64,000 nucleotides of DNA from Candidatus Woesearchaeota archaeon (GTDB lineage: Archaea; Nanobdellota; Nanobdellia; Woesearchaeales; SKIA01). A model generated the notes under the pieces. That model saw nothing but the letters and a program-made list of their open reading frames with translations. It was not told the DNA's origin and did no database searches. Positions 445 to 19,314 of the stretch are shown one piece after another. Position 1 is the first letter of the stretch, and each line of letters starts with the position of its first letter. Position numbers and translations under genes: made by a program. The stretch covers positions 36,761 to 100,760 of the forward strand of contig JAYVHA010000017.1 of the NCBI GenBank assembly GCA_043771635.1, read 5' to 3'.

Positions 445-465
445 TTTACGCACCCAGCACCATAA

Positions 466-612
466 CTAGTCTTCGGCCTCTTTAATGTCTTCTGAATTAA
501 AGCCAAATAAAAATAACACTACTAAGAAGGCCAATGCCGTGGCGCTTATTAGTATGACTATGGCAGTACCTATTACGGCGGTTGGATTGGTTATGACTTC
601 GACTGTTGCCAT
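466..612 (-). CDS. 48-aa single-pass membrane micro-protein (copy 1 of a tandem pair)
   Basis: Hand translation gives MATVEVITNPTAVIGTAIVILISATALAFLVVLFLFGFNSEDIKEAED. It has the same length and motif spacing (PT.VI...IS.TAL.F...LFL) as 298..444. Confidence 0.45.
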   Translation of the reverse strand: MATVEVITNPTAVIGTAIVILISATALAFLVVLFLFGFNSEDIKEAED

Positions 613-697
613 TTGTTTAAGGTGCGTATAGGTTTACGGTTCGTACTAGTAGTGTGCGTTTACTAGTATTATGTATTCAGTCCTTAATATTACTTAG

Positions 698-2476: not shown

Positions 2477-2477
2477 A

Positions 2478-2843: not shown

Positions 2844-3232
2844 GTACGCTCCAAAATGATCCTGTAAATAACAACCTGTGCGTGGTGGCTGCTGCTTGCA
2901 TCTGTGATGCGCTGCGCTAGTTCAACTTCTTCAAACACATCTCGGACCCAATTAGCAAAGTCATTTCGACCTTGGTTTACGTGGTGGTTCCAAACTGCAA
3001 TGCTCATATCATCGAGCATATCAGCGAGTTCTTTCAAGTCCGCTACATTTCTGCCGTCGACCAAGTGAAACTCGCGGCCCGGTTCAGCTCGCTTTATCGG
3101 CTTCGGGTTTTTATGCAATTCACTTGTAGTTTTACTCTTAATTGCGCGCTTTACTGCAGGCTTCTTTACACTGTCTCCTGTCGGTGAAGTTCCTTCCGGA
3201 GCTATTGCCTTTGTCTTTACCAATTGTATCAC
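2840..3232 (-). CDS. Small protein with an 'RNDFAxW' domain and a Lys/Pro-rich N-terminus
   Basis: 'FHLVDGRNVADLKELADML...NHHVNQGRNDFANWV' is paralogous to 2478..2843. It has a GTG start, and an A/T-rich tract at about 3245-3265 could be its promoter. Confidence 0.5.
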   Translation of the reverse strand: MIQLVKTKAIAPEGTSPTGDSVKKPAVKRAIKSKTTSELHKNPKPIKRAEPGREFHLVDGRNVADLKELADMLDDMSIAVWNHHVNQGRNDFANWVRDVFEEVELAQRITDASSSHHAQVVIYRIILERT

Positions 3233-3284
3233 CTGATTTCTTTTTCAAATTTTTTTATTTCTCATCCGCGGTACGCGGCGGCGC

Positions 3285-4511
3285 TCAGATTGTGCTGGCT
3301 TCCTGGGCGCTAGGATTCATCTCCTCTGAGCGATTTTCAAGGCGAAGCTTCATGTCCTGAATAACGTTCATGAACGCGATGTATGCCTCGTATGGGCTCT
3401 CATATGGGCTAAAGTACTTGTGTACGTCTCCGTCTGCGAACCATTTAGTGCACATATAGTAAAAATGGTCGCTTGTTGTGAGTTTGCGCCAATCATTTAG
3501 CATTGCAGGATCGCGCGCTGCCTTAACTTGAGCTTCAAGTTTGTAGAGTTCTTTTAGGGATGCTTCTTGCATTTTATTGCCGAGCCATGCAGTAAGATCT
3601 CGCTCTGCGTCTGCCCAACTGACATAGTCGTGTGCGTCAATGCGGCCGACCGAATCATAACTCTGAACTACTTCGCTCGGAGTTTTGAAATCGTTGTCAG
3701 GGTGTTCCAAAACTGCGTGCGGGAGGTGACGCATAAAATCAAAAATTCCTGTGTCTTCCCATTGATGTTCTCCAAACGTTTCGTAGTCCATAAACAGGTT
3801 TACAGTATGTCCGTTTCCATTTACTTTGTTTAGCCAGTCGCGAAATTTGTCAACTGTCAGAGGGTGCTCTTCCCATCCTTTGTTTCCAAAACGGAATGCG
3901 ATGTCGTCTGAGAGCTTGTAATTTTTTAGGAGTGTTTTGATATCTGTTGTGTACTCTGACTGGTAAATGAAATTAGGACTTCGCCAGCCAAGCATAGCGT
4001 CCCATCCCTCAGCAATAATTCCTTTGTAGCCGAGGCTTTCAACGTGGTTTGCAAGTTCGTTATTGTAAATTAGTTCTGTGTTTCTGAATACTGTTGGGCT
4101 TTGACCGAATTCTTTCTCCATAAGCTTTCGATGCATGTTAACTTGCTCTGAGAATTCTTCTTTTGAATACAGATATGACAAAGAGTGATAGTACGTTTCA
4201 TCTAGGAACTCAACGCATCCCGTGCGCGCAAGTTCTTTAAATGACTCAAGCACTTCCGGCGCATATTCGCGGAATTGTTCAATTGCGGTTCCAGTTATTG
4301 AAAAAGCTATTTTGAATTTGCCTTTGTGGTGCCTAATTTGCTCGAGGAGCAAATTATTCATTGGTAAATAGCATTTACGAGCTACTTTGCGCGCTACTTC
4401 CGCATTTTTATGATCATCGAAGTAGTGGTGATTGTGTCCGATATCAAACATTGAGTATCGGCGTAAGCGGTATGGTTGGTGAACTTGAAAGTAGAAGCAG
4501 ACGCTGACCAT
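3285..4511 (-). CDS. Glycoside hydrolase family 57 (alpha-amylase / alpha-glucan-active enzyme)
   Basis: 'VCFYFQVHQPYRLRRY' is the characteristic GH57 N-terminal motif. The ORF is 408 aa, and its start overlaps the upstream GT stop (TGATG). Confidence 0.85.
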   Translation of the reverse strand: MVSVCFYFQVHQPYRLRRYSMFDIGHNHHYFDDHKNAEVARKVARKCYLPMNNLLLEQIRHHKGKFKIAFSITGTAIEQFREYAPEVLESFKELARTGCVEFLDETYYHSLSYLYSKEEFSEQVNMHRKLMEKEFGQSPTVFRNTELIYNNELANHVESLGYKGIIAEGWDAMLGWRSPNFIYQSEYTTDIKTLLKNYKLSDDIAFRFGNKGWEEHPLTVDKFRDWLNKVNGNGHTVNLFMDYETFGEHQWEDTGIFDFMRHLPHAVLEHPDNDFKTPSEVVQSYDSVGRIDAHDYVSWADAERDLTAWLGNKMQEASLKELYKLEAQVKAARDPAMLNDWRKLTTSDHFYYMCTKWFADGDVHKYFSPYESPYEAYIAFMNVIQDMKLRLENRSEEMNPSAQEASTI

Positions 4512-5764
4512 CAGTGCTTAACCTGCAACAACAACTCTCCATAAACTTCTTCTAGGCGCTGCGCGTATCGATCCCAAGTCATTGACTGTACTTCAATAGT
4601 GCCGTGCTCTGTTAGGTGATCAGAGAGTTCACGGTACTTTAGCACTGCAAGTATTTTGTTTGCGGTGTCCGTGGTGTCCCAGAAGTCAACTTTTAGTGCG
4701 TTGCGTAGTACTTCAGCAACTCCACTTTGTCGACTCACTATTACTGGTGTACCTTTTTGCATTGCTTCAAGCGGCACTATTCCGAATGGCTCAGAAACTG
4801 AGGGCATAACAAAGCAGTCAGCCATTGCGAAAAGCTGTTCTGCATCGTGCCTGGAGTAAAATCCTGGGAAAATAAATTTGTCAGACATTCCTAGGTCAGC
4901 TGAAAGTTCAATCATGCGGTGGAGCATGTCGCCTGTTCCTGCCATCACGAACTTAACATTCGGATCTTTGTCGAGTACCAGGCGCGCTGCTTGTACAAAA
5001 TAATCGGGCCCTTTTTGTAGCGTCACGCGACCTGCAAAGAGTACAATTTTATCCGTTGACTTTATTTTAAGTGGGCCTGCGCCTATACTGTTGTTCATTG
5101 GGGTTGCTGCATTGTGCAGTACGCGGATTTTGTGCTCTGGAATGCCGTACTGGCTTACTAGACGGTTCTTTATGTAGTCGGAAACTGCAATTATAATGTC
5201 TGCTTCTTGCATTCCATATCGCTCAATGTCGTAAGCCATTTGATTAATTTGTCCGTCGCCACCGACCATGTCGAACTGCGTTATGTGTACGTGAACAATG
5301 AGAGGTTTACCTGAGGCATGTTTTGCACCTACTGCTGCAGGGAACGTTGTCCAGTCGTGCGCGTGAATAATATCGAATTCCTCCATTTCCGCAAGCGCGC
5401 GCACGCGGATTGCATATTTATGAATCTCGTCGAATAGGTCACGTCCGTAGAGCGTACGACTCTTATCGCGATCGTCTGCAATAACCTGCTGAAGTTGCTG
5501 CACGCGCTCACTATACTCGTGTTCAGTCGTATAAGCAGTGAGCGTTGAGCGCACTGTTTTAATTTTAAGGTTAGTATACTTGCTGAGTCGGCTAGCCACT
5601 ACAAGCTTAACAAAATCACTTTCTACATGTTCTGGACCAAATGGCATAACATAGGTTATTCCGAGTCCGCGCTGGCTAAGTGCGCGAGTTAACTCGTGGC
5701 AAACCATACCAACTCCGCCCGCAAAAAACGGAGGGAATTCCCAGCCGAGTGTCAGAATGCGCAT
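4511..5764 (-). CDS. GT4/GT5-type glycosyltransferase (prokaryotic glycogen-synthase-like)
   Basis: The N-terminus is 'MRILTLGWEFPPFFAGGVGMVCHEL'. The C-terminal 'VMPSVSEPFGIVPLEAM' is the E-x7-E glycos_transf_1 motif. Confidence 0.8.
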   Translation of the reverse strand: MRILTLGWEFPPFFAGGVGMVCHELTRALSQRGLGITYVMPFGPEHVESDFVKLVVASRLSKYTNLKIKTVRSTLTAYTTEHEYSERVQQLQQVIADDRDKSRTLYGRDLFDEIHKYAIRVRALAEMEEFDIIHAHDWTTFPAAVGAKHASGKPLIVHVHITQFDMVGGDGQINQMAYDIERYGMQEADIIIAVSDYIKNRLVSQYGIPEHKIRVLHNAATPMNNSIGAGPLKIKSTDKIVLFAGRVTLQKGPDYFVQAARLVLDKDPNVKFVMAGTGDMLHRMIELSADLGMSDKFIFPGFYSRHDAEQLFAMADCFVMPSVSEPFGIVPLEAMQKGTPVIVSRQSGVAEVLRNALKVDFWDTTDTANKILAVLKYRELSDHLTEHGTIEVQSMTWDRYAQRLEEVYGELLLQVKH

Positions 5765-6000: not shown

Positions 6001-6624
6001 TTGGACTCACAGGAATTATTAGTTGGAGTGCGCTGGGAGCTAGTTCAGATAATTGCGTCTAAGCCTTCAACTGGCGCCGAACTTGCACGTAATACAGGGA
6101 CTAGCGCAGCTAATGTGAGTCAGCATCTTAAGCTTTTAGAACTCGGCGGGATAGTGGTGCGCGAGCGTACAGGCGGTAAGTCTCAAACTTATAAAATTTC
6201 GAGACGTATGGCACTTATTACGGTGCTAGATGGTCAAGCGCGGCGCGCTTTGGTGCCACTTGATGTCGCGCGCACTGCAGAGTTAAAGTTACTTATGGAG
6301 GGGCGCTCAAGTGGTCGTTATTTACGAGCGTTTATTGCGCAGCAAGAGGACATTGTACGTTCGTTTATAGCGTTCGGAACGCTTCCCGAATACGAAGACA
6401 TACCGCTTCTTGTGATAGCTGATGACGTCCGGGCGTTACGACGAGAGTATGCTAATGTCCAAGTAGGTCCTCGTAAAATAGTTATTTGGAGTCATACGCC
6501 TGAAGAATTCGAAGAAGGAGTGCGCCGCGGAGATTCATATTTTACAGATAAGTTGCATGCAGTGGCGCCACTTGCAGACCCAAAAGATTTATTCGCTAAA
6601 TGGCGGAAGTTCGCAAATGAATAA
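6001..6624 (+). CDS. ArsR-type winged-helix regulator fused to a degenerate nucleotidyltransferase-like domain
   Basis: 'TGAELARNTGTSAANVSQHLKLLELGGIVVRER' is an ArsR/SmtB wHTH. The C-terminal 'IAFGTLPEYEDIPLLVIADD' looks like a decayed GS-x(n)-D-x-D minimal NTase motif. The only start is TTG, so the start is uncertain. Confidence 0.6.
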   Translation: MDSQELLVGVRWELVQIIASKPSTGAELARNTGTSAANVSQHLKLLELGGIVVRERTGGKSQTYKISRRMALITVLDGQARRALVPLDVARTAELKLLMEGRSSGRYLRAFIAQQEDIVRSFIAFGTLPEYEDIPLLVIADDVRALRREYANVQVGPRKIVIWSHTPEEFEEGVRRGDSYFTDKLHAVAPLADPKDLFAKWRKFANE

Positions 6625-6973
6625 GTTGGCTGCAATTATTGATAAGTTGCCGTTAGCTGACTTAATGCTTATTCAGAAGGATCTTGAAGCGGGGAACATC
6701 GACAAATTACTTAAGCAGCGAATTGCTGAGTTTGATGTGCTAAAAACCTGTCCTACATGCGGGCGAGAACTCGGACGCGATGAGCAGCGGTTTACGATTG
6801 AGTTCGGACCGCAGGGCTTGCGTCAAAGAGCATACTTTGATGAACTAGATTGTCTCAATTATTTCGTGGAAAAGCTGCATGCGCAAAATGCAAGGCAAAA
6901 TTCTAGGGCTGGCGGCGACTTGGAAGGGTCAAATAAGCCTCTCGGTTCAGAGAAAGGTAGCTATTATGAATGA
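6617..6973 (+). CDS. Hypothetical small protein
   Basis: The ATG at 6617 overlaps the upstream stop by 8 nt (ATGAATAA). There is one 'CPTCG' knuckle and no recognisable family. Confidence 0.5.
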   Translation: MNKLAAIIDKLPLADLMLIQKDLEAGNIDKLLKQRIAEFDVLKTCPTCGRELGRDEQRFTIEFGPQGLRQRAYFDELDCLNYFVEKLHAQNARQNSRAGGDLEGSNKPLGSEKGSYYE

Positions 6974-7448
6974 GGACGGCAAGTTGTCACTTGCTAAATC
7001 TAGACGTGGTATTTCACCTCTAATTGCTACGGTGCTGCTTCTAGCGTTTGCGGTCGCGATAGGTACTATGGCTGTGAGCTACGTGCTGGACGCGACTAAA
7101 ACGTCATTGTGTGACAGCGTAGAAATCGGTTTGGAAGCCACACCTAACGTATGCTGGACCAACAACCGCGCTTCATTTATTATTGTAAATCGTGCTGAAG
7201 GAAAGGGAGGTGAGCCGATTATGTTATCGAGCTTGTTAGTGCGCTTTATCAGTTCTTCTCAATCAATTGACGAACGTAAAATAGAGGGGCTCTCTATTGC
7301 GCAGGGTAGCGCCTCTAAAATTGATTTAGAGTATAAAGTGCCGAACGCGAATAACACACAAGTAAAAATCATTCCCGGCGTAAAAGATGGTGATAACGTG
7401 CTACTATGTCCTAAGCGCGAGCTTGTGACTTTTATAGGAGCTTGTTAG
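6966..7448 (+). CDS. Archaeal type IV pilin-like protein with a class III signal peptide
   Basis: 'KSRRG|ISPLIATVLLLAFAVAIG' is the archaeal flagellin/pilin N-terminal motif. The ATG at 6966 overlaps the upstream stop by 8 nt (ATGAATGA). Confidence 0.75.
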   Translation: MNEDGKLSLAKSRRGISPLIATVLLLAFAVAIGTMAVSYVLDATKTSLCDSVEIGLEATPNVCWTNNRASFIIVNRAEGKGGEPIMLSSLLVRFISSSQSIDERKIEGLSIAQGSASKIDLEYKVPNANNTQVKIIPGVKDGDNVLLCPKRELVTFIGAC

Positions 7449-7485: not shown

Positions 7486-8331
7486 ATGCGCATTACACTC
7501 ACTATCAGAAAGCGGTTTGAAGAGCAAGCAGCTGAGCGGTTTGAGGCAGCAAAAAAAGCCAAACGAAAACTGGAAGGTGCGAGAGCAACAATCGTTCGTT
7601 TCGAGCGTGAACTTCCGAAAACGGTAGAAAAAGTAGTTTCAGCTGCGCGAACAAAAGCTTGGTATGAGCGTTTTCGTTGGTCGCGCGCACCAGACTCCAC
7701 GCTTCTTGTTGGAGGGCGCGATGCGGGTACAAACGAAGTCCTGCTAAAGCGGCATCTTGAGCTGGATGATTTGGTGGTTCACACCGATGACCCTGGCAGC
7801 CCATTCGTACTCATTAAAGGAGGAGCTAAACTTACTGAGGAAAAAGCAAGCGCGGCATGTGCGGCAGCCGGGCAGTTATGTGCTGCGTACAGCCGCGCTT
7901 GGAAGCGAGGATCGTCTGTAAGTGATGCGTTTTGGGTAACTGCAGAGCAAGTGTCGAAAACTGCGAATGCTGGTGAATACATTGGCCGTGGTGCGTTTAT
8001 GATTCGCGGCGAGAAGCGGCCAATCAGCGCGAAAGTAGCAATTGCACTCGGGCGGCTTGATGACACTCCAGCGTGCGGCGTGTCGGAAATATTTAGTGGA
8101 ATCTACGCGCTAGTCGTGCCGGGCGACGAGAAGTCAAGTGATGTTGCTAAAAAGTTAGTTAAACGCCTCGGCGGAGTGCCGGACGACTGGGTTCCGCTAA
8201 TTCCCCCGGGAGGCTCAGTAATTCAAGGTTGGAAGCGTGGCTCAGGAGTTCGCGCCGAGACAAGCACTGGCGAGGGTTTATCTACTAATGAGACAGGAGA
8301 AGAGCTTGCGGCAAAGCCAGCAGCAAAATAG
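7486..8331 (+). CDS. NFACT-R (DUF814) domain protein, a short Rqc2/FbpA-family relative
   Basis: 'RFRWSRAPDSTLLVGGRDAGTNEVLLKRHLELDDLVVHTDDPGSPFVLIKG' matches the DUF814 core pattern. TATA 'ATAATATA' at 7457-7464 is centred 25.5 nt upstream of the start. Confidence 0.65.
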   Translation: MRITLTIRKRFEEQAAERFEAAKKAKRKLEGARATIVRFERELPKTVEKVVSAARTKAWYERFRWSRAPDSTLLVGGRDAGTNEVLLKRHLELDDLVVHTDDPGSPFVLIKGGAKLTEEKASAACAAAGQLCAAYSRAWKRGSSVSDAFWVTAEQVSKTANAGEYIGRGAFMIRGEKRPISAKVAIALGRLDDTPACGVSEIFSGIYALVVPGDEKSSDVAKKLVKRLGGVPDDWVPLIPPGGSVIQGWKRGSGVRAETSTGEGLSTNETGEELAAKPAAK

Positions 8332-8459: not shown

Positions 8460-10157
8460 GTGCTAGCTCGCCTCCTGCTTAGAGCACGCGATTACTCCAT
8501 GAGCGACACAGAGCACGCAACGCCGGAAGGAATGGGTGGAGCAGATGCTACGGGTTCTTGGGCGCCCGGAAAGGCTTCTTTTGTTACGAATGGAATGCTC
8601 GAAGCAGAGCAGCTTCTAGTAATGTACGGGTTCGTTAACAAAGAAGGGCAGGAATTCTATGATAAAAGTATCAAGGGAAAAAAGGAATCATTGCGCCGTC
8701 AAGCAGTAATGAACTTAGGCACTGAGAAATGTAAACAGTTTGCAGCTACTGAGCGAAGTGAAATAGTAGATAAGATATGGGACTCCACTGGCTATCCTGG
8801 ATCCTGTCGCCGTTATCATCTGGTACTCGAGAGTGCTACTGAAGGAATTGAAGACTCGTACTATGATGTACTTGAGCGCTGCCGTACATACTTCGGTTTT
8901 AGTATTGTACATAAGGTAACTGACTACTTTGCGGCAACTGAAAACAGTGCATTCTTTGGTAACAGTCAACAGCGACTTGGTCTACAGCAGGACCGTGTGC
9001 AACAGTTTCTTGGCAACATTGGAAAGTTTGTCAAGGAGCTCTTTCAAATGGTTCGCGAACTTCGCATTATCGACGAGCGTCTTGCAGCGTACGAAGCCGC
9101 AGGCGGAATTGGAAGTAAGCAGGAGAAAACCCCTGATTCAAAGTTTCATCATAGTGCCGCTGCGGACGTAAGCATGAAAAGTATTTTTACTGACGTAGTC
9201 GAGGGCGGGACTAAAAATCCACAAAGTGTTTTCGGCCTCGCGCAGCAAGTAGGTTTTACACTCCTTCCGGACTTGTTCTTTAATGAGTATGTTGCGAAGC
9301 CAGATGATATTGATGCGCGCATTGATGCGCTTCCGTATAACAAAAACGTTAAGACTGTTCTTAAGAGAAAGCTGCAACAATATCTTACTTGGAAGCAGCA
9401 CACATACATGGAACTTATGACTCGCCGTAGGTTTAATCTAAAATATATTCGTCAGCACTGGACAATAATCCGCATGTATATGGCGTGGGTAAAACCGTAC
9501 TTAAAGAACATTCAGCGCTTGACAATGAATCAAAAGTTTCAGGACAGCCCCGATTTAATTTCTGCGTTTGAAGGAAGTGTAATTGAAGTAGAGTTTGTCG
9601 CAGCAAAACCAGCAAATGGAGGATTTCACTCAGTTATTTTAGCGTCGTTTGTGTTCCGCACTAGGCCTGACATGAGTTCTCGAAAGGAATACCAAACTGG
9701 TCCTATGCACTTAGGCCGCATGGATATGAACTTACGCGCTTACGGTTGGACTCCTGAACAACTACAAGCGTATCGTGACATGAAGCGCCGCGAAGACATT
9801 GAACTACTTGGGCTTATTGATACTCAACTTACTGATGTCATGGATGGCCTCGGTATGGAGTTCGAGCGTTATCTGATTGAAGCAGGTGAAGATGCCATAG
9901 AAAAGGAACCTGAAAAGAAAGATGAGAAGCATAAGACAAAGCTCCGTGACACTGCTATCGGGCCTTTTATCGATATTCTGTATGGCTTTAAGGACTTAGG
10001 AGAAGCGTTCATCCCGTCTTCACTTTTCTCGTCAGGCGGCGAACACAGCCATAGCTCAGGTGGAGGCAATAACAAAAATGCACTAAAGGATGCGACTGGT
10101 AGTGCATTTCTTGTGTACAATACTTATAAGAAGAGCCGCCGCATGATTACTTGGTAG
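8460..10157 (+). CDS. Hypothetical 565-aa protein with no recognisable motif
   Basis: Long uninterrupted ORF. The start is GTG at 8460 or ATG at 8499. A 'TTTAAAAA' TATA-like box lies at 8409-8416, and a T8 run follows the stop. Confidence 0.6.
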   Translation: MLARLLLRARDYSMSDTEHATPEGMGGADATGSWAPGKASFVTNGMLEAEQLLVMYGFVNKEGQEFYDKSIKGKKESLRRQAVMNLGTEKCKQFAATERSEIVDKIWDSTGYPGSCRRYHLVLESATEGIEDSYYDVLERCRTYFGFSIVHKVTDYFAATENSAFFGNSQQRLGLQQDRVQQFLGNIGKFVKELFQMVRELRIIDERLAAYEAAGGIGSKQEKTPDSKFHHSAAADVSMKSIFTDVVEGGTKNPQSVFGLAQQVGFTLLPDLFFNEYVAKPDDIDARIDALPYNKNVKTVLKRKLQQYLTWKQHTYMELMTRRRFNLKYIRQHWTIIRMYMAWVKPYLKNIQRLTMNQKFQDSPDLISAFEGSVIEVEFVAAKPANGGFHSVILASFVFRTRPDMSSRKEYQTGPMHLGRMDMNLRAYGWTPEQLQAYRDMKRREDIELLGLIDTQLTDVMDGLGMEFERYLIEAGEDAIEKEPEKKDEKHKTKLRDTAIGPFIDILYGFKDLGEAFIPSSLFSSGGEHSHSSGGGNNKNALKDATGSAFLVYNTYKKSRRMITW

Positions 10158-10165
10158 TGCGGCGC

Positions 10166-10173
10166 TTTTTTTT
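10166..10173 (+). terminator. Oligo-T tract (archaeal-type terminator) after the 8460 gene
   Basis: 'GCGGCGCTTTTTTTT' lies 9 nt after the stop codon. Confidence 0.4.
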
Positions 10174-10216
10174 ATGCGTACGCTTAACTTAAAGCTAGAA
10201 TAACTGTGCTTGTAGT

Positions 10217-11092
10217 ATGTCCGGTTCCACCCACTCTGAATCAAAAAAAGCTCGGGAAGCGGCAGCTCCAGTAGTAACTACTAATTCCTTATCTGTCAAA
10301 CTTGCTGCTTCTAAACCTGCCTCTGTTATGCCTACCTCTGTCATGCATACCTCTGTCATGCCTGCTATTCCAATACCTGCTCCTAAGCCCGACTTAGCGT
10401 CTATTGCAGCGACAAGCAGCTCAACAAATATTCCTGCGCAGCTGCTAGCGTCTATGTTGTCTAGGTTACGTCATGATAAGGAATCACAATTACACAGTCA
10501 ATGGGATGCGCATCGAAAGCAAGTTGATGAAGCTGACGCTACTGCGCGCCAGGATGTGCTAATTTCCGCGCTTAAACGCGCAGAACAGGAAGAGCAAACG
10601 GTCAATGCGCAAACTGCATTAGAAACTGCGGTCCAGCGTGCACAAGCAAGCATGAACTCGCAGCAACAAGACACTATTCGTGAGGGCGCGCTGCGTGCAC
10701 GTTTGCAAGAATTTAGAGGAAGCGATGACGAAAGTGTAAGTGAGCGCCTGCGCAAAGAAGGTTTTGGGGACGCGCTCACTGAAAACAAGCTGCGGGAGAG
10801 AACGCTTGATCAACGCGTTGGAAACGAACTAGGGCTCAGGCCCGGTCAGGAATTTAGTCGCGGACCTGAAAAACTTTACACGCAAGATTCAGTGAGCGAG
10901 CGGGGTGAGTCGCAGCCTTACATGCGCAGCGAAGACTCTATGTATAATTCTGCTTCGGTTGATCCGACGCGCGGTGGTAGTGGTTCTGCTAACGCTTATG
11001 AACGCGCGCGCGACAAGGACGCAGAAGATGGAGTTCGCAAAGGCCTCGGGCTTGATATTGAATTAGGTTTATCTTACGGCCGCTCAAAATAG
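10217..11092 (+). CDS. Hypothetical low-complexity / coiled-coil protein
   Basis: The N-terminus is Ser/Ala/Pro-rich with a 3 x 5-aa repeat (SVMP/SVMH). The middle is Q/E/R-rich and helical. A TATA-like 'CTTAAAGC' lies about 27 nt upstream. Confidence 0.5.
   Translation: MSGSTHSESKKAREAAAPVVTTNSLSVKLAASKPASVMPTSVMHTSVMPAIPIPAPKPDLASIAATSSSTNIPAQLLASMLSRLRHDKESQLHSQWDAHRKQVDEADATARQDVLISALKRAEQEEQTVNAQTALETAVQRAQASMNSQQQDTIREGALRARLQEFRGSDDESVSERLRKEGFGDALTENKLRERTLDQRVGNELGLRPGQEFSRGPEKLYTQDSVSERGESQPYMRSEDSMYNSASVDPTRGGSGSANAYERARDKDAEDGVRKGLGLDIELGLSYGRSK
10320..10364 (+). repeat. 3 x 15-bp tandem repeat inside the CDS
   Basis: The units are cctctgttatgccta / cctctgtcatgcata / cctctgtcatgcctg. 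Confidence 0.8.
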
Positions 11093-11117
11093 GTGATTGT
11101 TTAGTTGGTTTTTTGCT

Positions 11118-11184
11118 TAGCTTGATTCTTAGCTTGCGTTATTGTCGACTTGCTTTCTGCATAGCTTGCTCGTAGTGTAGCTTG
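11118..11184 (+). repeat. Four direct copies of TAGCTTG(C) in the intergenic region upstream of 11261
   Basis: TAGCTTG occurs at 11118, 11130, 11162 and 11178. A near copy, GACTTGC, is at 11148. Confidence 0.6.
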
Positions 11185-11231
11185 CCCGTTGTGTAATCAG
11201 CCTAATTTTAGAAAACGCCGTTCCCCAACTC

Positions 11232-11239
11232 TTTTATAC
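11232..11239 (+). promoter_or_regulatory. TATA box for the 11261 gene
   Basis: 'TTTTATAC' is centred 25.5 nt upstream of the ATG at 11261. Confidence 0.5.
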
Positions 11240-11260
11240 CGCTGCGCTCAGAATTAACAC

Positions 11261-13342
11261 ATGGCGATGGGTTACATGAGTCCTGGTATGAATGCGATGG
11301 ATCGCGACTACTACTCGCGCATGCTGACGCGCCTTGACGCGTTCGGCCCGGTAATGAACCCGGTGAATAACCACGAGGGTGCAATAACGACTGGCCTCGG
11401 CCCTCGCGAACTCGGTACTACAATCAATCCGTTTCAACCACAAATTCAAGCGCTTCAAGCAAAAATTCGCGAAGGTGCGTCACGTTTAGAAATCGGTTTC
11501 GGCGGAGTCGGCAAAGGCAACTCACAGCAGCAGACGCCGGAAGCGTATGGCAGAGTTGAGCGCGAAGTCTTGCGCGAACTCGCTGTGTATAACGAAGTCA
11601 AGACTTCAACGCACGCGTCTTTTCAACTTGCAGGTTTAGCAGGTTTTGGCCGCGAAGGCTTCTCAAAGCAAGCGCAGCAAACAGTGCTTGAGGAAGTGCG
11701 CAAAGCAATTGACTTTGCAAGCGAAGCGACGACAGGCGGCGCAGTCGTCGTGCACACGGGCGAGTGGGCGCGTCCGATAAGCGAAGCGCCATGGGCTAAA
11801 GACTACAACATGAAAGACGGGCGCCCTGCATACTTAGGTTATGGGGACGAAGACAAAAAAGCGGAGTTACCCGTAGTCGACGCACGGACAGGTCAAATTG
11901 TCGGAGGCATTCGTAAGGATCAAGAAATCTATGAACCAAAGTGGATTCTTGCCAAAGACTATGAGGTTGAAAGCAAAAAGAAATTGTCTGGCCGCGACTT
12001 ACAAGGTAAGCCTACGACTTACAAACCTAATGATTTTGTGGATTTGGATGGTAATAAGCTTAATCCTGATAAACCTGATGAAATGTTCAGACGGCTTCCT
12101 GCTTGGGATGCGGTCAATACTAGATTTAAAGTCGAACCTGTAACTTGGGACACTTTAGTAGCGCGAGCGAAAGAGTTTAATGAATCTCATCCTAATGCAA
12201 ATATACGCCCGGAAGTATTGTATGCGAAGTTACAAATTGAGAATCAAGCTCTGCAGCAAAGAGGAGCATCTCTGTTCCATACGCAGCGATATGAGGCTGA
12301 GCGAAGTCGATATTACTCAGCAAAAGACAGGCTTGCTGCGGCGGAAAGAGGAGAGATTTCAGCTATACCTCCAGAGCTTATTGAGCAAGCCGCACAGGCT
12401 GGTCGCGTTAAAGATGAAACTGATCTGAAGAAATTACTTCCGGATGCTCAAAGATTTTTGAAGCAAGAAATGGATGGCCATGAGCGTTCTATGCGACATA
12501 CACACGAATCGTCTTCAGCGGCTGACGTACAGGCGGAAACTCTTCTAGCGCGCGCGTCCAAATTAGAAACAATGGAAGAGTACGGCTTAAAGCAAAGCGG
12601 CGCAGCAATTGCTGAACTTGCCGAGCACGCGCGCGCAAAAACCCAGAAGATGATGGCGGATGTCAAAGCGCGCGGCGGCGACCTCTCGAAGTTCTCAAAG
12701 ATTTACATAGCGCCTGAAAACGTGTTTACGGAGCAGTACGGCAGTCACCCGGATGAACTAATGAACATTGTAAAGGCTGGCCGCGACCAGTTTGTTGAGA
12801 ACATGAAAAAGAAAGGTCTCAGCGAGTCGGAGGCGCGCAAGGAAGCCTCGGAGCACATCAAAACTACAATCGACATCGGCCATCTAAACATGTGGCGAAA
12901 ACACTTGCGGCGCTTTGACGGAGAAGATGACGCTGCGTTCGACAAGCGCTTTGAAACTTGGACGATGGGCAAAGTCGAGGAGATGCACAAGAAAGGCATG
13001 ATCGGCCACATTCACTTAACCGACAACTTAGGTTACAATGACGAACACTTGTCTCCGGGTCAAGGCAACGCGCCGATTCGCGCGTTTGTTAAACGTCTTG
13101 CGGAGCTAGGCTATGATGATTTTATTTCAGAGATTGGCTCGTTTAACTCAGGAACTATTTTGAGCGACACTTGGACTTACCTTGGCGCGGAGCACTACAA
13201 GCGCGGTTCCGCGTTCGGCAGCACCCAGTTCAAAGATCTCCAGTCAAGACACTTCGGCAGCTATGCGCCGCCAATGTTTATTTATGGCGCTTACTCTCCA
13301 AGCAATGAATTCACGCTCTGGAGCCAAGTGCCGCTCGAGTAA
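11261..13342 (+). CDS. Endonuclease IV / xylose-isomerase-like TIM-barrel protein with a large internal insertion
   Basis: The ordered motifs are 'STHAS' (H118), 'VVVHTGEW' (H165), 'YIAPEN' (E486), 'IDIGHL' (D538/H541), 'GHIHLTDN' (H585), 'NDEHLSPGQGNAPI' (D594/H596) and 'ISEIG' (E624). These parallel the nine Nfo metal ligands. The H165-E486 gap is 321 residues, versus 36 in E. coli Nfo. Confidence 0.7.
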   Translation: MAMGYMSPGMNAMDRDYYSRMLTRLDAFGPVMNPVNNHEGAITTGLGPRELGTTINPFQPQIQALQAKIREGASRLEIGFGGVGKGNSQQQTPEAYGRVEREVLRELAVYNEVKTSTHASFQLAGLAGFGREGFSKQAQQTVLEEVRKAIDFASEATTGGAVVVHTGEWARPISEAPWAKDYNMKDGRPAYLGYGDEDKKAELPVVDARTGQIVGGIRKDQEIYEPKWILAKDYEVESKKKLSGRDLQGKPTTYKPNDFVDLDGNKLNPDKPDEMFRRLPAWDAVNTRFKVEPVTWDTLVARAKEFNESHPNANIRPEVLYAKLQIENQALQQRGASLFHTQRYEAERSRYYSAKDRLAAAERGEISAIPPELIEQAAQAGRVKDETDLKKLLPDAQRFLKQEMDGHERSMRHTHESSSAADVQAETLLARASKLETMEEYGLKQSGAAIAELAEHARAKTQKMMADVKARGGDLSKFSKIYIAPENVFTEQYGSHPDELMNIVKAGRDQFVENMKKKGLSESEARKEASEHIKTTIDIGHLNMWRKHLRRFDGEDDAAFDKRFETWTMGKVEEMHKKGMIGHIHLTDNLGYNDEHLSPGQGNAPIRAFVKRLAELGYDDFISEIGSFNSGTILSDTWTYLGAEHYKRGSAFGSTQFKDLQSRHFGSYAPPMFIYGAYSPSNEFTLWSQVPLE

Positions 13343-13390
13343 GTCCTTTCTAGTAGAAACACTTAAAGCTTCTCAGCGAGTTCCCAGCGT

Positions 13391-14149
13391 ATGACTGCGC
13401 CTGTACGTCGCCCTGATCCGCGTGATGACATTGGTACTCGACAATTCGCGCTCGGGAAAGCACTCAGAATGCGCTTACCAGATTTGCCTCCTGCACATGA
13501 AGTAATTGGGTACGGTGATGACTGGGAGTATGGTGCGTTGCTTGACAAGTACTCCGAAAGAACACGCGTTGTTGAGCTTGCAGAAAGCACACTCCCATTT
13601 GCTGTGCAAGTCTCTCGCGATGGTAACGTAACGCTTGCGGTAGATCGCATTAAGTGGTACTTCCCTGACCAGGGTCCGTCGGGGCGCGTGCGATCTGCAA
13701 CAGAAGAGGCTATGCAATGGTACTTTTTTGATACGGTTGAAGATGGTCTAAAGCAATCTGGTTTAACGTCGGAACTAATGACCAGTCGCGCAAAGGACTA
13801 CAAACCAGGTTCCCCAATGGCTTTCTTGGCTTACTACTCGCGCAGTAGCGGTGTTTCATTGCCGGTTAAAGGCGCTATCACAGTAACTGACAATAACTCG
13901 AATTTCAAAGCGTCGCTCTCTATTGACTCATTCCTCGATCCATTCCCTGAACTCACAACAGCTATCTTTCCGTCCCGTTTGCTGGATCAACCGTCCCATA
14001 CTCTAGATCGTGTGCAACTCTTGATGCCAGATGCTACGCCGAACCTCTGTTTGCCTGCGAATTTGCAACGTATCTACGTGCACACGACCGATCGGTATGG
14101 CGGTCATTGGTCCATTGACTGCAATGGACTTCTTAGTACGCCAAAATAA
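13391..14149 (+). CDS. Hypothetical 252-aa protein
   Basis: Clean ORF with an ATG start and a weak TATA-like 'ACTTAAAG' about 27 nt upstream. No recognisable motif. Confidence 0.5.
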   Translation: MTAPVRRPDPRDDIGTRQFALGKALRMRLPDLPPAHEVIGYGDDWEYGALLDKYSERTRVVELAESTLPFAVQVSRDGNVTLAVDRIKWYFPDQGPSGRVRSATEEAMQWYFFDTVEDGLKQSGLTSELMTSRAKDYKPGSPMAFLAYYSRSSGVSLPVKGAITVTDNNSNFKASLSIDSFLDPFPELTTAIFPSRLLDQPSHTLDRVQLLMPDATPNLCLPANLQRIYVHTTDRYGGHWSIDCNGLLSTPK

Positions 14150-14187
14150 GTAGAGAAAATAGTTAGAAAAATTTGTACTAAGCTTAC

Positions 14188-14691
14188 TCAGTTCAACACT
14201 TTGTAGTGTAGCCTAATGTTCGCGCCGCGTTGTTCGCTGTGCAGTAGCTCGAGTTGTACGCTAGGTGCTTCCTTGGTAAAAGTTCCTGCGCCGTGGCTGA
14301 AGAGCTGCGGCTCAAGGTCCATTATAACTTCGGACACGAGGCCGGCGTCAAGGAACTTAGTGTTTGTAATAGCGCCACCAAGCAAAAGTGCCTGCGTAAT
14401 GTCTCTGCCATGAAGCTCAGTAATTGCTTCTTTTGCAGTTTCAACAAAAACAGTGTTCTCGTCGAGTGCGCCGTGCGTACTAGTAACAACAATTACGAGC
14501 GGATTGCCGAGTTTAGTAAACTCGTCGCCTTCAGAGAGAACTTCGAAAGTATTGCGTCCGACAATAACTGCCGGGAAGCGTTTAGCTAGTTCGTAGCGGT
14601 CTTGATGGGTGGATTCGGACCAAGGCATCTCGCCGCTTGCGTGTGCGACGAATCCATTGGCGGTTTGAGTGGTGAACATGACGATGCGCAT
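14188..14691 (-). CDS. Dihydrofolate-reductase-like / RibD C-terminal domain reductase
   Basis: 'MRIVMFTTQTANGF...VIVGRNTFE...LLLGGAITNTKFLDAGLVSEV' matches this family. The start at 14691 is supported by 'CTTATAAT' (14714-14721 on the minus strand), centred 26.5 nt upstream. Confidence 0.7.
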   Translation of the reverse strand: MRIVMFTTQTANGFVAHASGEMPWSESTHQDRYELAKRFPAVIVGRNTFEVLSEGDEFTKLGNPLVIVVTSTHGALDENTVFVETAKEAITELHGRDITQALLLGGAITNTKFLDAGLVSEVIMDLEPQLFSHGAGTFTKEAPSVQLELLHSEQRGANIRLHYKVLN

Positions 14692-14786
14692 ATTAGTTTT
14701 CTTGCGCTGCCCTATTATAAGTTTTACTACTTGCTTATAGCCACACAGTGAAACTATGGCTGCGGTACGCACCTGGAACGACAGGG

Positions 14787-16547
14787 TTATCGCGTAACTT
14801 TTCGTGTTGGTTCGTCAGTTTGCTGACGCCAGAACGCATAGTATAGGCCCTTTTTCTTAAGTAGCGCTGCGTGGGTTCCGGATTCCGACACATGTCCTCT
14901 CTCAAGAACGTAGATTCTGTCTGCGTGCACAACTGTTGAGAGACGGTGAGCTATCATAATAACAATTAGGTTCGGTCTATGTGCTTTGATAGTTTTGATA
15001 GTTTCTGTGATTGCCTGCTCTGAAATCGAGTCAAGACTGCTTGTCGCTTCGTCAAAGATTATTAGTTCCGGCTCGCGCAGTAGTGCGCGGGCAATAGCCA
15101 GGCGTTGACGCTCGCCGCCAGAGAGTTTAACTCCGCCTTCTCCGATTTTCGTGTCTAGTCCTTTGTCGCCGCGTTCCACTAGGTTGTAAATGGATGCGGC
15201 TTTCAGCGCTTCAACGCACGCTTGCTCCGACGCTTTAGGATTAACAAACAGTAAGTTCTCGCGGATTGTGCCGGCGAAAAGTTGGGTTTCCTGTGACACT
15301 AGGCCTATGCGATTTCGCAGTTGATCAAAGTCAATCGTGCGCGCGTCAAGATCATTAAATTTAAGGGCGCCGGCGGTTGGAGTATATAGTCCGACAAGTA
15401 GCTTAGTGAGGGTTGTTTTACCGCTGCCTGACGCACCTACAAACGCGATTGTTTCCCCTGCGCGAACTGCTAAGTCGACGCCTTTGAGTGCGTCGGTCGA
15501 GATAGTAGCGTATCTGAAAGACGCATCCTTAAACTCGATTTGTTTAATTTTTGGTACTACTTTCGCGTTCTTAGGTTTGCGTTGTGGCGGAAGCTTTAGT
15601 ATTTCTTCGAGTGCTTCGTTGCTTGCAATGGCTTCCTGGTATTGTGCTGCGACAGTGCCGAGACTGCTTAGTGGAGTAAATATTGCGAAGCTATAGAACA
15701 GGAGTGTAAAAAACTCTCCTAGTGTTAACGAACCGTTCGCGATGAGCCAAAGCATTAGGAGTAGTAGTGCGGAGCGGAAAAGATTGATTGCTGTACCTTG
15801 AATGAATCCTAGTTTGCGCAAGAGTTTGACTTTCTCAAGCTCCAAGCCTAGGATTTTCTCGTTTACCAAGTTAAGACGCTTAATTTCCTGCGCTTCAAGC
15901 CCTAAACTTTTGACAAGTTCTACATTGCGAATAGTTTCCGTTGTAGATCCTGCAAGCTCCGCTGCTTGAATTATAATTTTCTTTTGCGCGGCTTTAATTT
16001 TACGGCTAATGTAGTACGTGAATCCGCCGAGCACAGGGATTATTAGCAGGTATACGAGGCCGACAAGCCAGTTGACGTAAAACGCGTAGCACAGTACAAT
16101 GATTATGCCGACTGCTGCAAGGAAAATAATTCCGATAAAACTTTCAATGACTGCTTGTGTGTCGGTACGAGCCTTCTGAAGTTTCTGCAGGATTTCTCCT
16201 GAGCGGCGGTCTTCAAACACTCCGTATGGTAGTGAGAAAGTGTGTGCTACGCTCTTGCTGTACATATTAGTGCCGACGCGCTGAGTAATTACGCTCACAT
16301 AGTATTCTTGGAACGTTTTTGCAGTGCGTGAAACGAATGCCACGCCGACTGCGGCAAGCACAAGAAGGGACACGCCCTTAAGAAATTCAGTCGGGGTTAG
16401 CTCGGTTGCTTTAGACGCGTAATTGTCTATTATTAATCGAAAAATTTGCGGGTCGAGTAAAGAGAATAATTGGTTTATAACTGCCAGAACCAGTGCGAGC
16501 GCGAGTAGCTTGCGGTAATCTTTAAGGCGTTGCCAAATAAGGCGCAT
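14787..16547 (-). CDS. ABC exporter, fused permease/ATPase (MsbA/multidrug type)
   Basis: Six-TM N-terminal half, Walker A 'GASGSGKTT', signature 'LSGGERQRLAIARAL' and Walker B 'IIFDEATSSLD'. Confidence 0.9.
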   Translation of the reverse strand: MRLIWQRLKDYRKLLALALVLAVINQLFSLLDPQIFRLIIDNYASKATELTPTEFLKGVSLLVLAAVGVAFVSRTAKTFQEYYVSVITQRVGTNMYSKSVAHTFSLPYGVFEDRRSGEILQKLQKARTDTQAVIESFIGIIFLAAVGIIIVLCYAFYVNWLVGLVYLLIIPVLGGFTYYISRKIKAAQKKIIIQAAELAGSTTETIRNVELVKSLGLEAQEIKRLNLVNEKILGLELEKVKLLRKLGFIQGTAINLFRSALLLLMLWLIANGSLTLGEFFTLLFYSFAIFTPLSSLGTVAAQYQEAIASNEALEEILKLPPQRKPKNAKVVPKIKQIEFKDASFRYATISTDALKGVDLAVRAGETIAFVGASGSGKTTLTKLLVGLYTPTAGALKFNDLDARTIDFDQLRNRIGLVSQETQLFAGTIRENLLFVNPKASEQACVEALKAASIYNLVERGDKGLDTKIGEGGVKLSGGERQRLAIARALLREPELIIFDEATSSLDSISEQAITETIKTIKAHRPNLIVIMIAHRLSTVVHADRIYVLERGHVSESGTHAALLKKKGLYYAFWRQQTDEPTRKVTR

Positions 16548-16637
16548 ATCGGATATGCGAGCGCCGGTTCATTCATAAATGCGATGCATAATTGGGTGTG
16601 TGCGAAAGTGTGCTTCTTACTAAATGAAACTGGGTAC

Positions 16638-17042
16638 CTAGCGGAACTCAAATCGTGGGTCATCGCTGCGTATAAATTTCTCGCGCCCGTATTCGTCGAG
16701 CAGCGCGTTTGCTTTTTTGAGTCGCGGGTCGCCCATCATCGGGTGGGGTTTTTTAGACGGTCCCGCGGTCGGAAGCGGTTTTGCTTCGCCTTGCTGCGTG
16801 CGTTGCAGTTCTACTGCTTTTGACATGTTAATAATGCCGCATTTGTCACAAGTAAAAAATGGTCCCCACTTGCCTTCGCGCATTTCAAGCCACGCGCCGC
16901 AAGCGCACTTAATTTCGCCAAGTGTGCTATTTTTGTGGCTTGCGCATACTGGTAGTCCGTCTTTATTTTTCGTGTATGCAGCGCCGCCGCAGAACGGACA
17001 GACAGCAATTTTAGCTTCGCCATAGCGTTTTCCACCAAACAT
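16638..17042 (-). CDS. Zinc-finger protein with topoisomerase-type C4 fingers
   Basis: 'CPFCGG...CASH' and 'CACGAWLEMREGKWGPFFTCDKCG' are present. The palindromic TATA 'CTTATAAG' (17066-17073) is centred 27.5 nt upstream. Confidence 0.6.
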   Translation of the reverse strand: MFGGKRYGEAKIAVCPFCGGAAYTKNKDGLPVCASHKNSTLGEIKCACGAWLEMREGKWGPFFTCDKCGIINMSKAVELQRTQQGEAKPLPTAGPSKKPHPMMGDPRLKKANALLDEYGREKFIRSDDPRFEFR

Positions 17043-17161
17043 AATTGACTTGGCTCGCCTTTTGTCTTATAAGTATTCTGGCCGCAGAATGGGGAGTTTT
17101 GTTTCTATTGCAAAGGCAAAACAACCTAAATCTTGAAATAGGGAGGCGCACTCTTTTAATT

Positions 17162-17698
17162 ATGCAACGTGCGACTGGCGCCTCGATATTGTCGGACGAG
17201 CGTGGCATGTACGGCGTTCATCTCGGAAGACTCGAGTCGGGTGAGAATCCTCCCCTGGCAGACATTAGTGAGGTGTTCAGTCTCGACGCATATAATCGAT
17301 TTAAGGCAAATCAGCCGCAGCCAAGTTCAGTATTTAATCGTCGCGCCCTAACAGTGCTGTATGGCTCTGAAACTTTACCAGGCTCGAAAGAAGATGCGCG
17401 TAGCTTTGTAAGTCGCAAATTAACTAGTATGATTTTCGGAGAGCGCACGGATATGCTTTATACAAGGAATCTGCACAAGCAGCTTCCAGCTAACGATTTG
17501 GCGCTTCTTGTATCGGCTTGGGATGCTAACTCGTTTGGACTTATTGCGCGTGGAGAGTATCATGGTATTGCGGACGTATTGTTTTATTCTTCTCAGCGTC
17601 GAGATTTAGTTGCGCTCCCAGAAGTTCCCGAACTCGCTCTTTGCGGACTTACTCTGGTCGACTACCCTCGTTTTCAGCGCGCTCTTATGAAAATTTAG
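17162..17698 (+). CDS. Hypothetical protein (start uncertain)
   Basis: The ORF-track frame begins at 17045 with TTG, and the first ATG is at 17162. No recognisable motif. Confidence 0.4.
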   Translation: MQRATGASILSDERGMYGVHLGRLESGENPPLADISEVFSLDAYNRFKANQPQPSSVFNRRALTVLYGSETLPGSKEDARSFVSRKLTSMIFGERTDMLYTRNLHKQLPANDLALLVSAWDANSFGLIARGEYHGIADVLFYSSQRRDLVALPEVPELALCGLTLVDYPRFQRALMKI

Positions 17699-17735: not shown

Positions 17736-18323
17736 ATGTCTACGTCCATAAGTTCGGAGGATCGTCGCGCCGCTTTTGAAAAAATAAAGCAGTACTTTGC
17801 CGAGAAAGACCGTGCGCGCGCGCAGCAAGGTAAGCTGTCCCTTGGCTCAACGGAAAAAGGGTTTTGGGGCGTGAGCCATCTTGACGATGTATATGCTTGG
17901 GCGGAGAAAGTGGCGCTGCACGAGCAACCGGCGCTGCTTGACTTAGGCTCGGGCGACGGGCGCGTTGTGCTTGTAACTGCTTTATTCACTCCTTCAACAG
18001 GCATTGAGTATGATCTAGGACTGCATGAACTAGCGGTGCAGGCGGCGGCAGACCTGCAGATTCCAGTAACGCTTGTTGCGGGCGACTATACGCAGCATGA
18101 TTTATCGCAGTATCGCGTACTCTTCGCATACGCTGATCATAACTGGCGCTGGCTTGAAGTAAAACGTGCGGAACTCACGGACAAGCACGAGCTTCATCTT
18201 TACCATGATACTTTTCATCCTGAGTTTCTAACGAAAGGCAAGACAACTTGGATTGGACAGATTCCTATTTTTTTATACACTACGGCTGAAAAACCAAGTA
18301 ATGAGTTAGATAATAATAGCTAA
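17736..18323 (+). CDS. Class I SAM-dependent methyltransferase-like protein
   Basis: 'LLDLGSGDGRVVL' is motif I. TATA 'TTTTTTAT' at 17707-17714 is centred 25.5 nt upstream. Confidence 0.5.
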   Translation: MSTSISSEDRRAAFEKIKQYFAEKDRARAQQGKLSLGSTEKGFWGVSHLDDVYAWAEKVALHEQPALLDLGSGDGRVVLVTALFTPSTGIEYDLGLHELAVQAAADLQIPVTLVAGDYTQHDLSQYRVLFAYADHNWRWLEVKRAELTDKHELHLYHDTFHPEFLTKGKTTWIGQIPIFLYTTAEKPSNELDNNS

Positions 18324-18399: not shown

Positions 18400-19314
18400 G
18401 TGGAATTTCCGATTGAGCGCCCGCCATCACCAGTGGACAGGTCGTCGCCCTCAGGATTAGGTATTAAGCACTCGGACGACGACCGCACAACTGCGTACGC
18501 GTTTGCTGCTAAACTTTATCGTGAGTTGGGAAAGCTATGCCGAGCAATAGTCTTGTTCGGCAGTGTAGCTGAGCGCGACCCTCGAGACTTACACGATCCT
18601 CATCGCGATCACAATCATGGTCCTGTTACGCCTGCAGGCGACATAGACATACTAGTCGTGCTTGATGACGTCGGCGTAGTACTAACCGACGAACTGATAA
18701 CTGGCTACCGTGTTATTGGTGAGCAGTGCGCGCGCGACGTTGGCGGGCGCATCCACATTACCACGGTGACGTTTACGACGTTTTGGGAATATGCGCGCGT
18801 TGCGGACCCAGTAATGGTAAACGTGCTACGCACAGGATTGCCTCTAATTGATACTGGTTTTTTCGAACCTATGCAAATTTTGCTGCGGCAAGGTCGTATT
18901 CGCCCAACTGAAGAGTCGGTTTGGGTTTACTACCTTCGCGCTCCTCAAAGCCTAGCGTCGAGCCAAGGTCGGTTGCAGCAAGCTGTGCTCGACTTGTACT
19001 GGGCGTGCATTGACGCAGCGCACGCTGCCGTTATGGCTGCAGGTGAAGTACCGACGAGCCCGCGCCACGCGGCGGATTTACTTCGGTCACTGTATGTGGA
19101 GCGAGGATTACTTGAAGAGCAGTACGCGCAGACGCTTGAGCATTTCTACCAGCTTGGAAAAGACGTTATGCATCGCCGTGTTGGCGCAATTTCGGCAGAA
19201 TATTACGATCAATTGTACGCGCAAGCAAAAGCATTTGTGGACCGTATCCGTGCCTTTTTGCCTGCGCGCCACGGTTCAATTAATCACTCTGACGACAAGC
19301 CAGGCTTAATTTAG
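18400..19314 (+). CDS. Pol-beta-superfamily nucleotidyltransferase with a helical C-terminal domain
   Basis: 'VLFGSVAERD...GDIDILVVLDD' is a GS...D.D NTase motif interrupted by a His/Asp-rich loop. 'ADPVMVNVLRTGLPLIDTGFFEP' is paralogous to 37920..39782. The start is GTG, with 'CTATAAAAG' about 27 nt upstream. Confidence 0.65.
   Translation: MEFPIERPPSPVDRSSPSGLGIKHSDDDRTTAYAFAAKLYRELGKLCRAIVLFGSVAERDPRDLHDPHRDHNHGPVTPAGDIDILVVLDDVGVVLTDELITGYRVIGEQCARDVGGRIHITTVTFTTFWEYARVADPVMVNVLRTGLPLIDTGFFEPMQILLRQGRIRPTEESVWVYYLRAPQSLASSQGRLQQAVLDLYWACIDAAHAAVMAAGEVPTSPRHAADLLRSLYVERGLLEEQYAQTLEHFYQLGKDVMHRRVGAISAEYYDQLYAQAKAFVDRIRAFLPARHGSINHSDDKPGLI

Follow-up and report, generated by a model that had tools for sequence, protein, structure and literature searches.

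An endonuclease IV-like TIM barrel protein and two orphan proteins are encoded by a conserved three-gene unit of Woesearchaeota

Only one of four consecutive genes in a woesearchaeal genome encodes a protein with a recognizable domain, and the question raised by this locus is which of the genes belong together and what their products do. The genes, here called A, B, C, and D, lie on the plus strand of a 64,000-nt stretch of Candidatus Woesearchaeota archaeon DNA (GenBank assembly GCA_043771635.1, contig JAYVHA010000017.1, forward-strand positions 36,761 to 100,760). This whole stretch is referred to as the window and its first nucleotide is position 1. Few uncultured archaea are as widespread as Woesearchaeota and their relatives, whose distinctive traits reside mostly in anonymous lineage-specific families (PMC8204110, PMC9258230). 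The initial annotation of the window took all four genes as a candidate undescribed module built around a nuclease-like triosephosphate isomerase (TIM) barrel protein, the product of C, and considered a role in DNA processing or defense. The unit consists of three genes, A, B, and C, and excludes D.

Synteny was analyzed by tblastn searches of the window proteins against 84 related loci, followed by open reading frame (ORF) clustering of 83 loci that took in the first 24 kb of the window. The adjacency of A and C was scored on the 61 loci with at least 3.5 kb of DNA downstream of A. In 58 of these 61 loci, C follows A on the same strand. A B-family gene is found in 47 loci and is always co-directional with A and C. 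Within the scored set it is present in 42 of 61 loci, in the order A-B-C in 24 and in the order A-C-B, with B directly after C, in 18. The trio thus stays contiguous despite rearrangement. The start of B overlaps the end of A by a few nucleotides in at least 8 loci, and the gap between A and C is 6 to 7 nt in two loci (L017 and L077). The NCBI locus tags on one contig, which were assigned independently, are 03675 for A and 03685 for C. The slot of several loci without a clustered B holds an unclustered ORF of similar size, and looser BLAST linkage ties the slot ORFs of L001, L003, L005, and L032 to the B family. The block in the window matches the A-B-C pattern, with A and C co-directional and a coiled-coil B between them. 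The proposed module around the TIM barrel protein and the conservation of its neighborhood in relatives therefore stand for A, B, and C and fall for D. Literature searches that paired Woesearchaeota with TIM barrels or endonuclease IV, or that targeted 3WQO, brought up no account of an A-B-C module.

D is a neighbor only, an ORFan outside the module. Its product finds only itself among 5.8 billion clusters, has no tblastn match in the 84 related loci, and has no Pfam, NCBIfam, PHROG, or PADLOC match. The 252-aa protein is indeed without a nameable motif, as first described, and its place as the fourth member is lost because it has no homolog, is absent from the 84 loci, and is replaced in relatives. 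The same-strand block does not begin at A either. The plus-strand run reaches upstream to position 6001 and includes a helix-turn-helix (HTH) gene, a gene for a 138-aa protein, a pilin-like gene, and a gene for the C-terminal half of RqcH, all ahead of A. A relative from JGI that keeps this whole run from the HTH gene to C has a minus-strand gene of 117 aa after C instead of D. Two families of the ORF clustering, families 8 and 4, usually follow soon after the module in relatives. Their copies in the window (17736-18323 and 18400-19314) lie ~4.4 kb further on, and this displacement beyond D places D in a variable segment.

The segment from 13391 to 17698, between C and families 8 and 4, is ~4.4 kb long and genome-specific. 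It contains the ORFan D, a RibD_C/DHFR-like gene, an ABC transporter gene, and a gene for a small zinc-ribbon protein, the last three on the minus strand, together with a 217-aa orphan. The small zinc-ribbon protein has a sub-threshold Lar-like match. The segment looks like a variable insertion.

C is a xylose-isomerase-like (β/α)8 TIM barrel split by an insert of ~300 aa. Scans of all four proteins against Pfam, NCBIfam, PHROGs, and PADLOC gave a single passing family match, AP_endonuc_2 (PF01261) in C, which agrees with the earlier observation that only the 693-aa protein has recognizable motifs. The match scores 47.5 bits against a cut-off of 31.1, covers residues 529-623 only, and recurs in 50 of the 50 C members scanned. 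The 94 full-length relatives of C range from 590 to 728 aa and are as little as 30% identical to it, and the family is soluble with an isoelectric point (pI) of 5.8. The AlphaFold2 model of C is confident, with a predicted local distance difference test (pLDDT) score of 87.6, a predicted template modeling (pTM) score of 0.83, and eight barrel strands. The insert has no Pfam match in the 50 members and no credible Foldseek match over its length. Two peptides, YxxAMDRxY at the N terminus and PSNEWxLWSxVPLE at the C terminus, are conserved yet low-confidence or disordered in the model, a pattern that would be typical of partner-binding peptides.

The metal-ligand set connects C to endonuclease IV (Endo IV). 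Across 50 C sequences, the most distant of them 31% identical, residues H118, H165, E486, D538, H541, H585, and H596 are invariant, and the conservation of D594 and E624 is at least 90%. An hhalign comparison with Escherichia coli Nfo places D538, H541, H585, D594, H596, and E624 on D179, H182, H216, D229, H231, and E261, respectively. The order of the barrel strands suggests that H118, H165, and E486 correspond to H69, H109, and E145 of Nfo. C therefore shares with Endo IV/Apn1 the fold, the superfamily, and all nine ligand positions, six of them by direct alignment, among which is the D-x-H of the third metal site. A global hhalign of the full-length C barrel with E. coli Nfo failed, and only the C-terminal half aligns meaningfully. 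The top Foldseek matches of the C model are Apn1/Endo IV structures (probability 0.96-1.0), followed by xylose isomerases and UlaE. The first description of the 693-aa protein as endonuclease IV/AP_endonuc_2-like holds at the level of the metal-ligand set by residue alignment, hhalign, and Foldseek.

C departs from Endo IV/Apn1 in its architecture. Endo IV/Apn1 enzymes are compact three-zinc, single-domain proteins of ~285 aa, whereas C has 693 aa with the ~300-aa insert and the conserved terminal peptides, and it is tied to two orphan partner genes. The closest sequence in the PDB is MJ1311 (3wqo; E 1e-10 with a profile), which was the sole solved relative found with the C profile and with C stripped of its insert. 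MJ1311 of Methanocaldococcus jannaschii is an Endo IV-like TIM barrel and is listed as a predicted archaeal Endo IV homolog (PMC2770678). It shares with C the motif GH(I/V)H..DN.GY.DEHL..G.GN, including the D-E-H segment (D594-E-H596), where the sugar epimerase 6wn6 has a 5-residue gap. However, MJ1311 is a single-domain protein of 293 aa without the insert, and only ~50 of its residues align significantly with C.

A is a closed orphan family. An exhaustive profile search of 1.84 billion representatives found 717 clusters at 50% identity, and the family numbers more than 874 clusters at 90% identity. That search gave relatives of at most 561 aa, without fusions or sizes atypical of the family, and it brought up no distant relative with a known domain. 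A is present in at least 454 GTDB species representatives. The protein, tested as a single sequence, as a profile, and member by member, has no Pfam, NCBIfam, PHROG, PADLOC, or PDB sequence match, which upholds the original statement that it has no nameable motif. A Pfam scan of 51 members at permissive E-values gave no consistent family, and the A profile returned only noise from PDB sequences. The family has a mean column identity of 45% with ~50 invariant residues, and it is basic (median pI 9.1) and soluble with no transmembrane segment. The AlphaFold2 model of A is fairly confident (pLDDT 76.5, pTM 0.64). It predicts two three- to four-stranded sheets (residues 84-148 and 359-417), two very long helices (residues 153-201 and 282-343), and a conserved C-terminal helix ending in YKKxHxMLxW. 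The C terminus is conserved yet low-confidence in the model. A Foldseek search of the A model against the PDB and BFVD found nothing at E ≤ 0.001. Matches to TolC, CapZ, Cyt1A, and SecB-like PDB entries were weak and inconsistent (E ≥ 0.1, TM ≤ 0.2) and were rejected as noise. An hhalign of the two halves of A gave no internal duplication.

In NCBI, the label 'Nitrosarchaeum sp.' is attached to a 3.9 kb contig that carries A and C, and the titles of several GTDB records read 'Methanosarcinales', 'Euryarchaeota', or 'Bacteroidota'. The distribution is otherwise exclusive to Woesearchaeota and Nanoarchaeota, so these records look mis-binned or mislabeled.

B is a low-complexity, coiled-coil protein in the slot that is occupied in relatives by an acidic coiled-coil family of ~150-260 aa. 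This family is soluble with a median pI of 5.0 and has a LSPEERIKKLKELEE-like N-terminal motif. The similarity of the window B to the hidden Markov model of the family is not significant, and B fits the module by position and composition. One relative has an A that is 85% identical to the window A, yet its B-slot ORF and the window B share 36% identity, which indicates that B evolves very fast. B has no Pfam match, and a permissive scan of 10 B sequences gave no consistent family. The tandem peptide repeat reported for the 291-aa protein, like its low-complexity and coiled-coil character, is real and consists of 3.2 copies of a 15-nt unit that encode (P)TSVM three times.

We tentatively favor a reading in which Woesearchaeota and close DPANN relatives inherit A, B, and C vertically as a lineage-specific housekeeping module, whose products would form one complex with C as a three-metal phosphoesterase that probably acts on nucleic acid. 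C would be the catalytic subunit, and its full three-metal Endo IV site makes phosphoester hydrolysis the most likely predicted reaction. The most probable substrates would be damaged or blocked nucleic-acid ends or abasic sites, with C acting like an apurinic/apyrimidinic (AP) endonuclease or in 3'-end cleaning. The insert of C, the basic A, and the acidic B probably position or regulate the active site, and the conserved disordered terminal peptides of C and A are likely docking elements. The gene linkage, the fold and conserved ligands of C, and the lack of any known family for A and B are shown, and from them we infer that the trio forms a complex, that C is a phosphoesterase acting on nucleic acid, and what A and B do.

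Several observations weigh against this assignment. Owing to the insert, the Foldseek E-values for C reach only 3e-3 to 2e-2. The alignment of C with Nfo by hhalign is of low probability (E 0.03), and in the N-terminal half, where hhalign was unreliable, the three N-terminal ligands were mapped by strand order alone. No Nfo family model in NCBIfam matched C, including barrel-only constructs at E ≤ 1, and the NCBIfam matches obtained are weak and only to sugar epimerase/isomerase models at the strand-7 motif. Since the ligand set is kept and no Nfo model matches, C is filed as Endo IV-like in predicted chemistry and not as an Nfo family member. The DNA-intercalating loop residues of Endo IV (Y72/L73 and R37) are not conserved in C; Y72 and L73 follow H69, and the positions after H118 in C are variable with no conserved counterpart. 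A resembles no known nucleic-acid-binding fold in the Foldseek searches of the PDB and BFVD or in the Pfam scans of its members. The superfamily holds enzymes with other substrates, such as CbiR, a non-DNA phosphodiesterase of cobamide remodeling (PMC7733943). Conserved synteny in reduced genomes alone is no proof of physical interaction.

A further-reaching proposal, which we regard as somewhat doubtful, is that A, B, and C are an unrecognized machine restricted to DPANN archaea of the Woesearchaeota/Pacearchaeota type and near-universal in them. A with a new fold and B as a fast-evolving acidic coiled-coil adaptor would harness C, an Endo IV-derived three-metal hydrolase, for a task without counterpart in other archaea. 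Such a task might be that of a genome-maintenance or nucleic-acid-scavenging complex tied to a symbiotic, biosynthesis-poor lifestyle.

The same conserved three-metal ligand set would also serve a phosphodiesterase or phosphatase acting on a small-molecule or lipid-type substrate, with A and B as scaffolds or regulators. Candidate substrates include glycerophosphodiesters and nucleotide-sugars, or C could act in cofactor remodeling as CbiR does. The variable positions in place of the DNA-intercalating residues would suit such an enzyme, and DPANN archaea rely on scavenged lipids and nucleotides (PMC8204110). CbiR is a precedent within the PF01261 superfamily for a phosphodiesterase with a non-DNA substrate (PMC7733943), and one C homolog weakly matched the CbiR model. 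However, that match was obtained with 1 of 9 sequences at E 0.002, far below the cut-off, and the similarity of C to CbiR is marginal with no cobamide gene context. No neighbor gene indicates a small-molecule pathway, and C is cytoplasmic with a basic 500-aa partner. We consider a small-molecule substrate unlikely.

A role for C as a sugar or sugar-phosphate isomerase, epimerase, or dehydratase in carbohydrate metabolism, with A and B as unrelated or structural neighbors, is suggested by the name of the Pfam family, 'xylose isomerase-like TIM barrel'. The sugar isomerases and epimerases of PF01261 (FrlC, UlaE, hydroxypyruvate isomerase, and 3-keto-glucoside epimerase) share this family and the barrel with C, and JGI names some C members 'sugar phosphate isomerase/epimerase'. 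These enzymes use one or two metals with an E-D-H-E ligand set. The best NCBIfam matches of C are to fructoselysine 3-epimerase (9 of 9 members, best E 5.6e-6) and hydroxypyruvate isomerase. These matches are confined to ~40 residues at strand 7, and their scores of 10-20 bits fall far short of the cut-offs, which exceed 300 (21 against 305 for the best, FrlC). No full-length match of C to a curated isomerase/epimerase model was found. Five invariant ligands of C lie beyond the E-D-H-E set (H118, H165, H541, D594, and H596) and match Endo IV, and the D-x-H segment is absent from the aligned epimerase 6wn6. An α-glucan cluster (GT4/GT5, GH57) is located 3-8 kb upstream in this genome and in close relatives, but it is encoded on the opposite strand, and most of the 83 loci lack it. 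A sugar-converting C is likewise unlikely on this evidence.

The adjacency of A, B, and C might also reflect inherited gene order only, the three being unrelated lineage-specific proteins in a slowly rearranging core region. Other neighbors do recur without a functional tie, among them a Kef-type antiporter (44 loci), the RqcH C-terminal half (28 loci), and families 4, 8, and 12. The linkage of A and C in 58 of 61 loci is far tighter than that of any other neighbor (at most 44 of 83). B shifts position yet stays in the trio, and it is fast-evolving but retained. The start/stop overlaps and the 6-7 nt gaps suggest co-translation. Inherited gene order as the whole explanation has little probability. 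The presence of a metal-dependent nuclease-like enzyme flanked by unknown proteins, a fast-evolving B, and an adjoining ORFan had pointed to an anti-virus defense system or part of a mobile element, which is hardly credible since A, B, C, and D have no PADLOC or PHROG match, a set of 2.9 million viral contigs yielded no A relative, almost the whole lineage carries the module (at least 454 species for A) with conserved flanks, stable core synteny, and host-like composition, and no integrase, transposase, or repeat boundaries were seen.

The putative housekeeping module turns three anonymous families into one defined unit. C is its catalytic candidate with nine conserved metal ligands, and its partners A and B appear obligate, A being a 45%-conserved 500-aa protein whose predicted fold is unmatched in the PDB or a viral structure library. 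Should C be the AP endonuclease of these archaea, it would show how a core repair enzyme was remodeled by the addition of an insert and accessory proteins. Otherwise, the module would mark an unknown essential process in DPANN cells. Lineage-specific families of unknown function shared by Woesearchaeota and Pacearchaeota have been reported only as anonymous co-occurrence modules, of which 'module 98' (Castelle et al. 2021; PMC8204110) is an example, and A, B, and C probably belong to families of this kind. Such modules list families that co-occur and include no gene-cluster, structural, or active-site analysis. The earlier picture of the locus is corrected from four genes to three, from defense to housekeeping, and from Endo IV to Endo IV-like.

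The ORF listing confirms four consecutive plus-strand ORFs separated by 48-168 nt (59 nt between A and B, 168 nt between B and C, and 48 nt between C and D). It also contains a longer form of A (8460-10157, plus strand) with a GTG start and 565 aa, and public gene calls put the start of A at M14 of this form. The features of the block are collected in Table 1. T-runs follow the first two genes and TATA-like boxes lie ~23-30 nt ahead of the starts of B, C, and D, as had been noted. CTTAAAG is not enriched in the window (15 observed against 14.85 expected), so the boxes are present but indistinguishable from chance by count. A bacterial promoter and terminator scan is uninformative for an archaeon. 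Codon usage is host-like for A, B, C, and D, each in its own frame only, and the GC content of the block is unremarkable and matches the host.

Table 1. Positions of the genes, sequence signals, and protein segments of the block in the window.
Feature	Position	Strand	Details
Sequence TTTAAAAA	8408-8415		Ahead of gene A
Gene A	8499-10157	+	552 aa from ATG 8499 (public gene calls, homolog alignment)
T8 run downstream of A	10166-10173	+	Sequence reading
TATA-like CTTAAAG	10188-10194	+	23-29 nt before B start
Gene B	10217-11092	+	ORF, 291 aa
Tandem repeat in B	10316-10363	+	15 nt x 3.2 copies, encodes (P)TSVM three times
T6 run downstream of B	11109-11114	+	Sequence reading
TATA-like TTTTATA	11232-11238	+	23-29 nt before C start
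Gene C	11261-13342	+	ORF, 693 aa
C barrel strands 1-4	11393-11785	+	Residues ~45-175; invariant E77, H118, E145, H165, E168
C insert between strands 4 and 5	11786-12700	+	Residues ~176-480; small β-rich part, then long helices
C barrel strands 5-8 and tail	12701-13339	+	Residues 481-693; E486, D538, H541, H585, D594, H596, E624
TATA-like CTTAAAG	13362-13368	+	Precedes D start
Gene D	13391-14149	+	ORF, 252 aa

The recurrent core neighbors of the module are the RqcH C-terminal half, the Kef-type antiporter, YhbY, and methyltransferase-like genes. The Kef-type Na+/H+ exchanger carries a TrkA_N domain and, in 44 loci (L007-L012, L017, L024, L033, L039, and others), directly precedes A on the same strand. 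A small CRS1/YhbY RNA-binding gene is located between the exchanger and A in 13 of these 44. Neither gene occurs within the initial 24 kb of the window that entered the clustering. In L026, L049, L053, L063, and L077, which make up one sub-group, A and C occur without a B-family gene and are followed directly by genes for a T2SSE-type ATPase and two T2SSF-type membrane proteins. This gene set after C corresponds to type IV pilus-like assembly, and L001 has the same genes nearby on the opposite strand.

Immediately upstream of A in the window, a stand-alone 281-aa gene (7486-8331, plus strand) encodes the C-terminal half of RqcH (NFACT-R), which covers positions 381-644 of a 645-position archaeal model. 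The N-terminal half of RqcH was not seen near 7486-8331. A similar gene of ~260 aa recurs upstream of A in 28 related loci, and the lineage seems to carry a split or truncated RqcH. The preceding gene (6879-7448, plus strand) codes for a protein of 189 aa that has a signal peptide of the archaeal class III (pilin/archaellin) type, RRGISPLIATVLLLAFAVAIG, and 11 related loci keep this gene upstream of the RqcH fragment. The run begins at 6001-6973 (plus strand) with the HTH gene (MarR/ArsR-like) and the gene for the 138-aa CxxC zinc-ribbon protein, which overlap by 68 nt. The CxxC protein has a weak Rad50 zinc-hook match. The order of these two genes is kept in the closest relatives, L005, L006, and L085. 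The α-glucan/glycogen cluster (GT4/GT5 synthase-like, GH57) occupies 4511-5764 on the minus strand and extends further upstream. In the closest relatives this cluster adjoins the run from the HTH gene to C, and in L085 it is at 156-5126.

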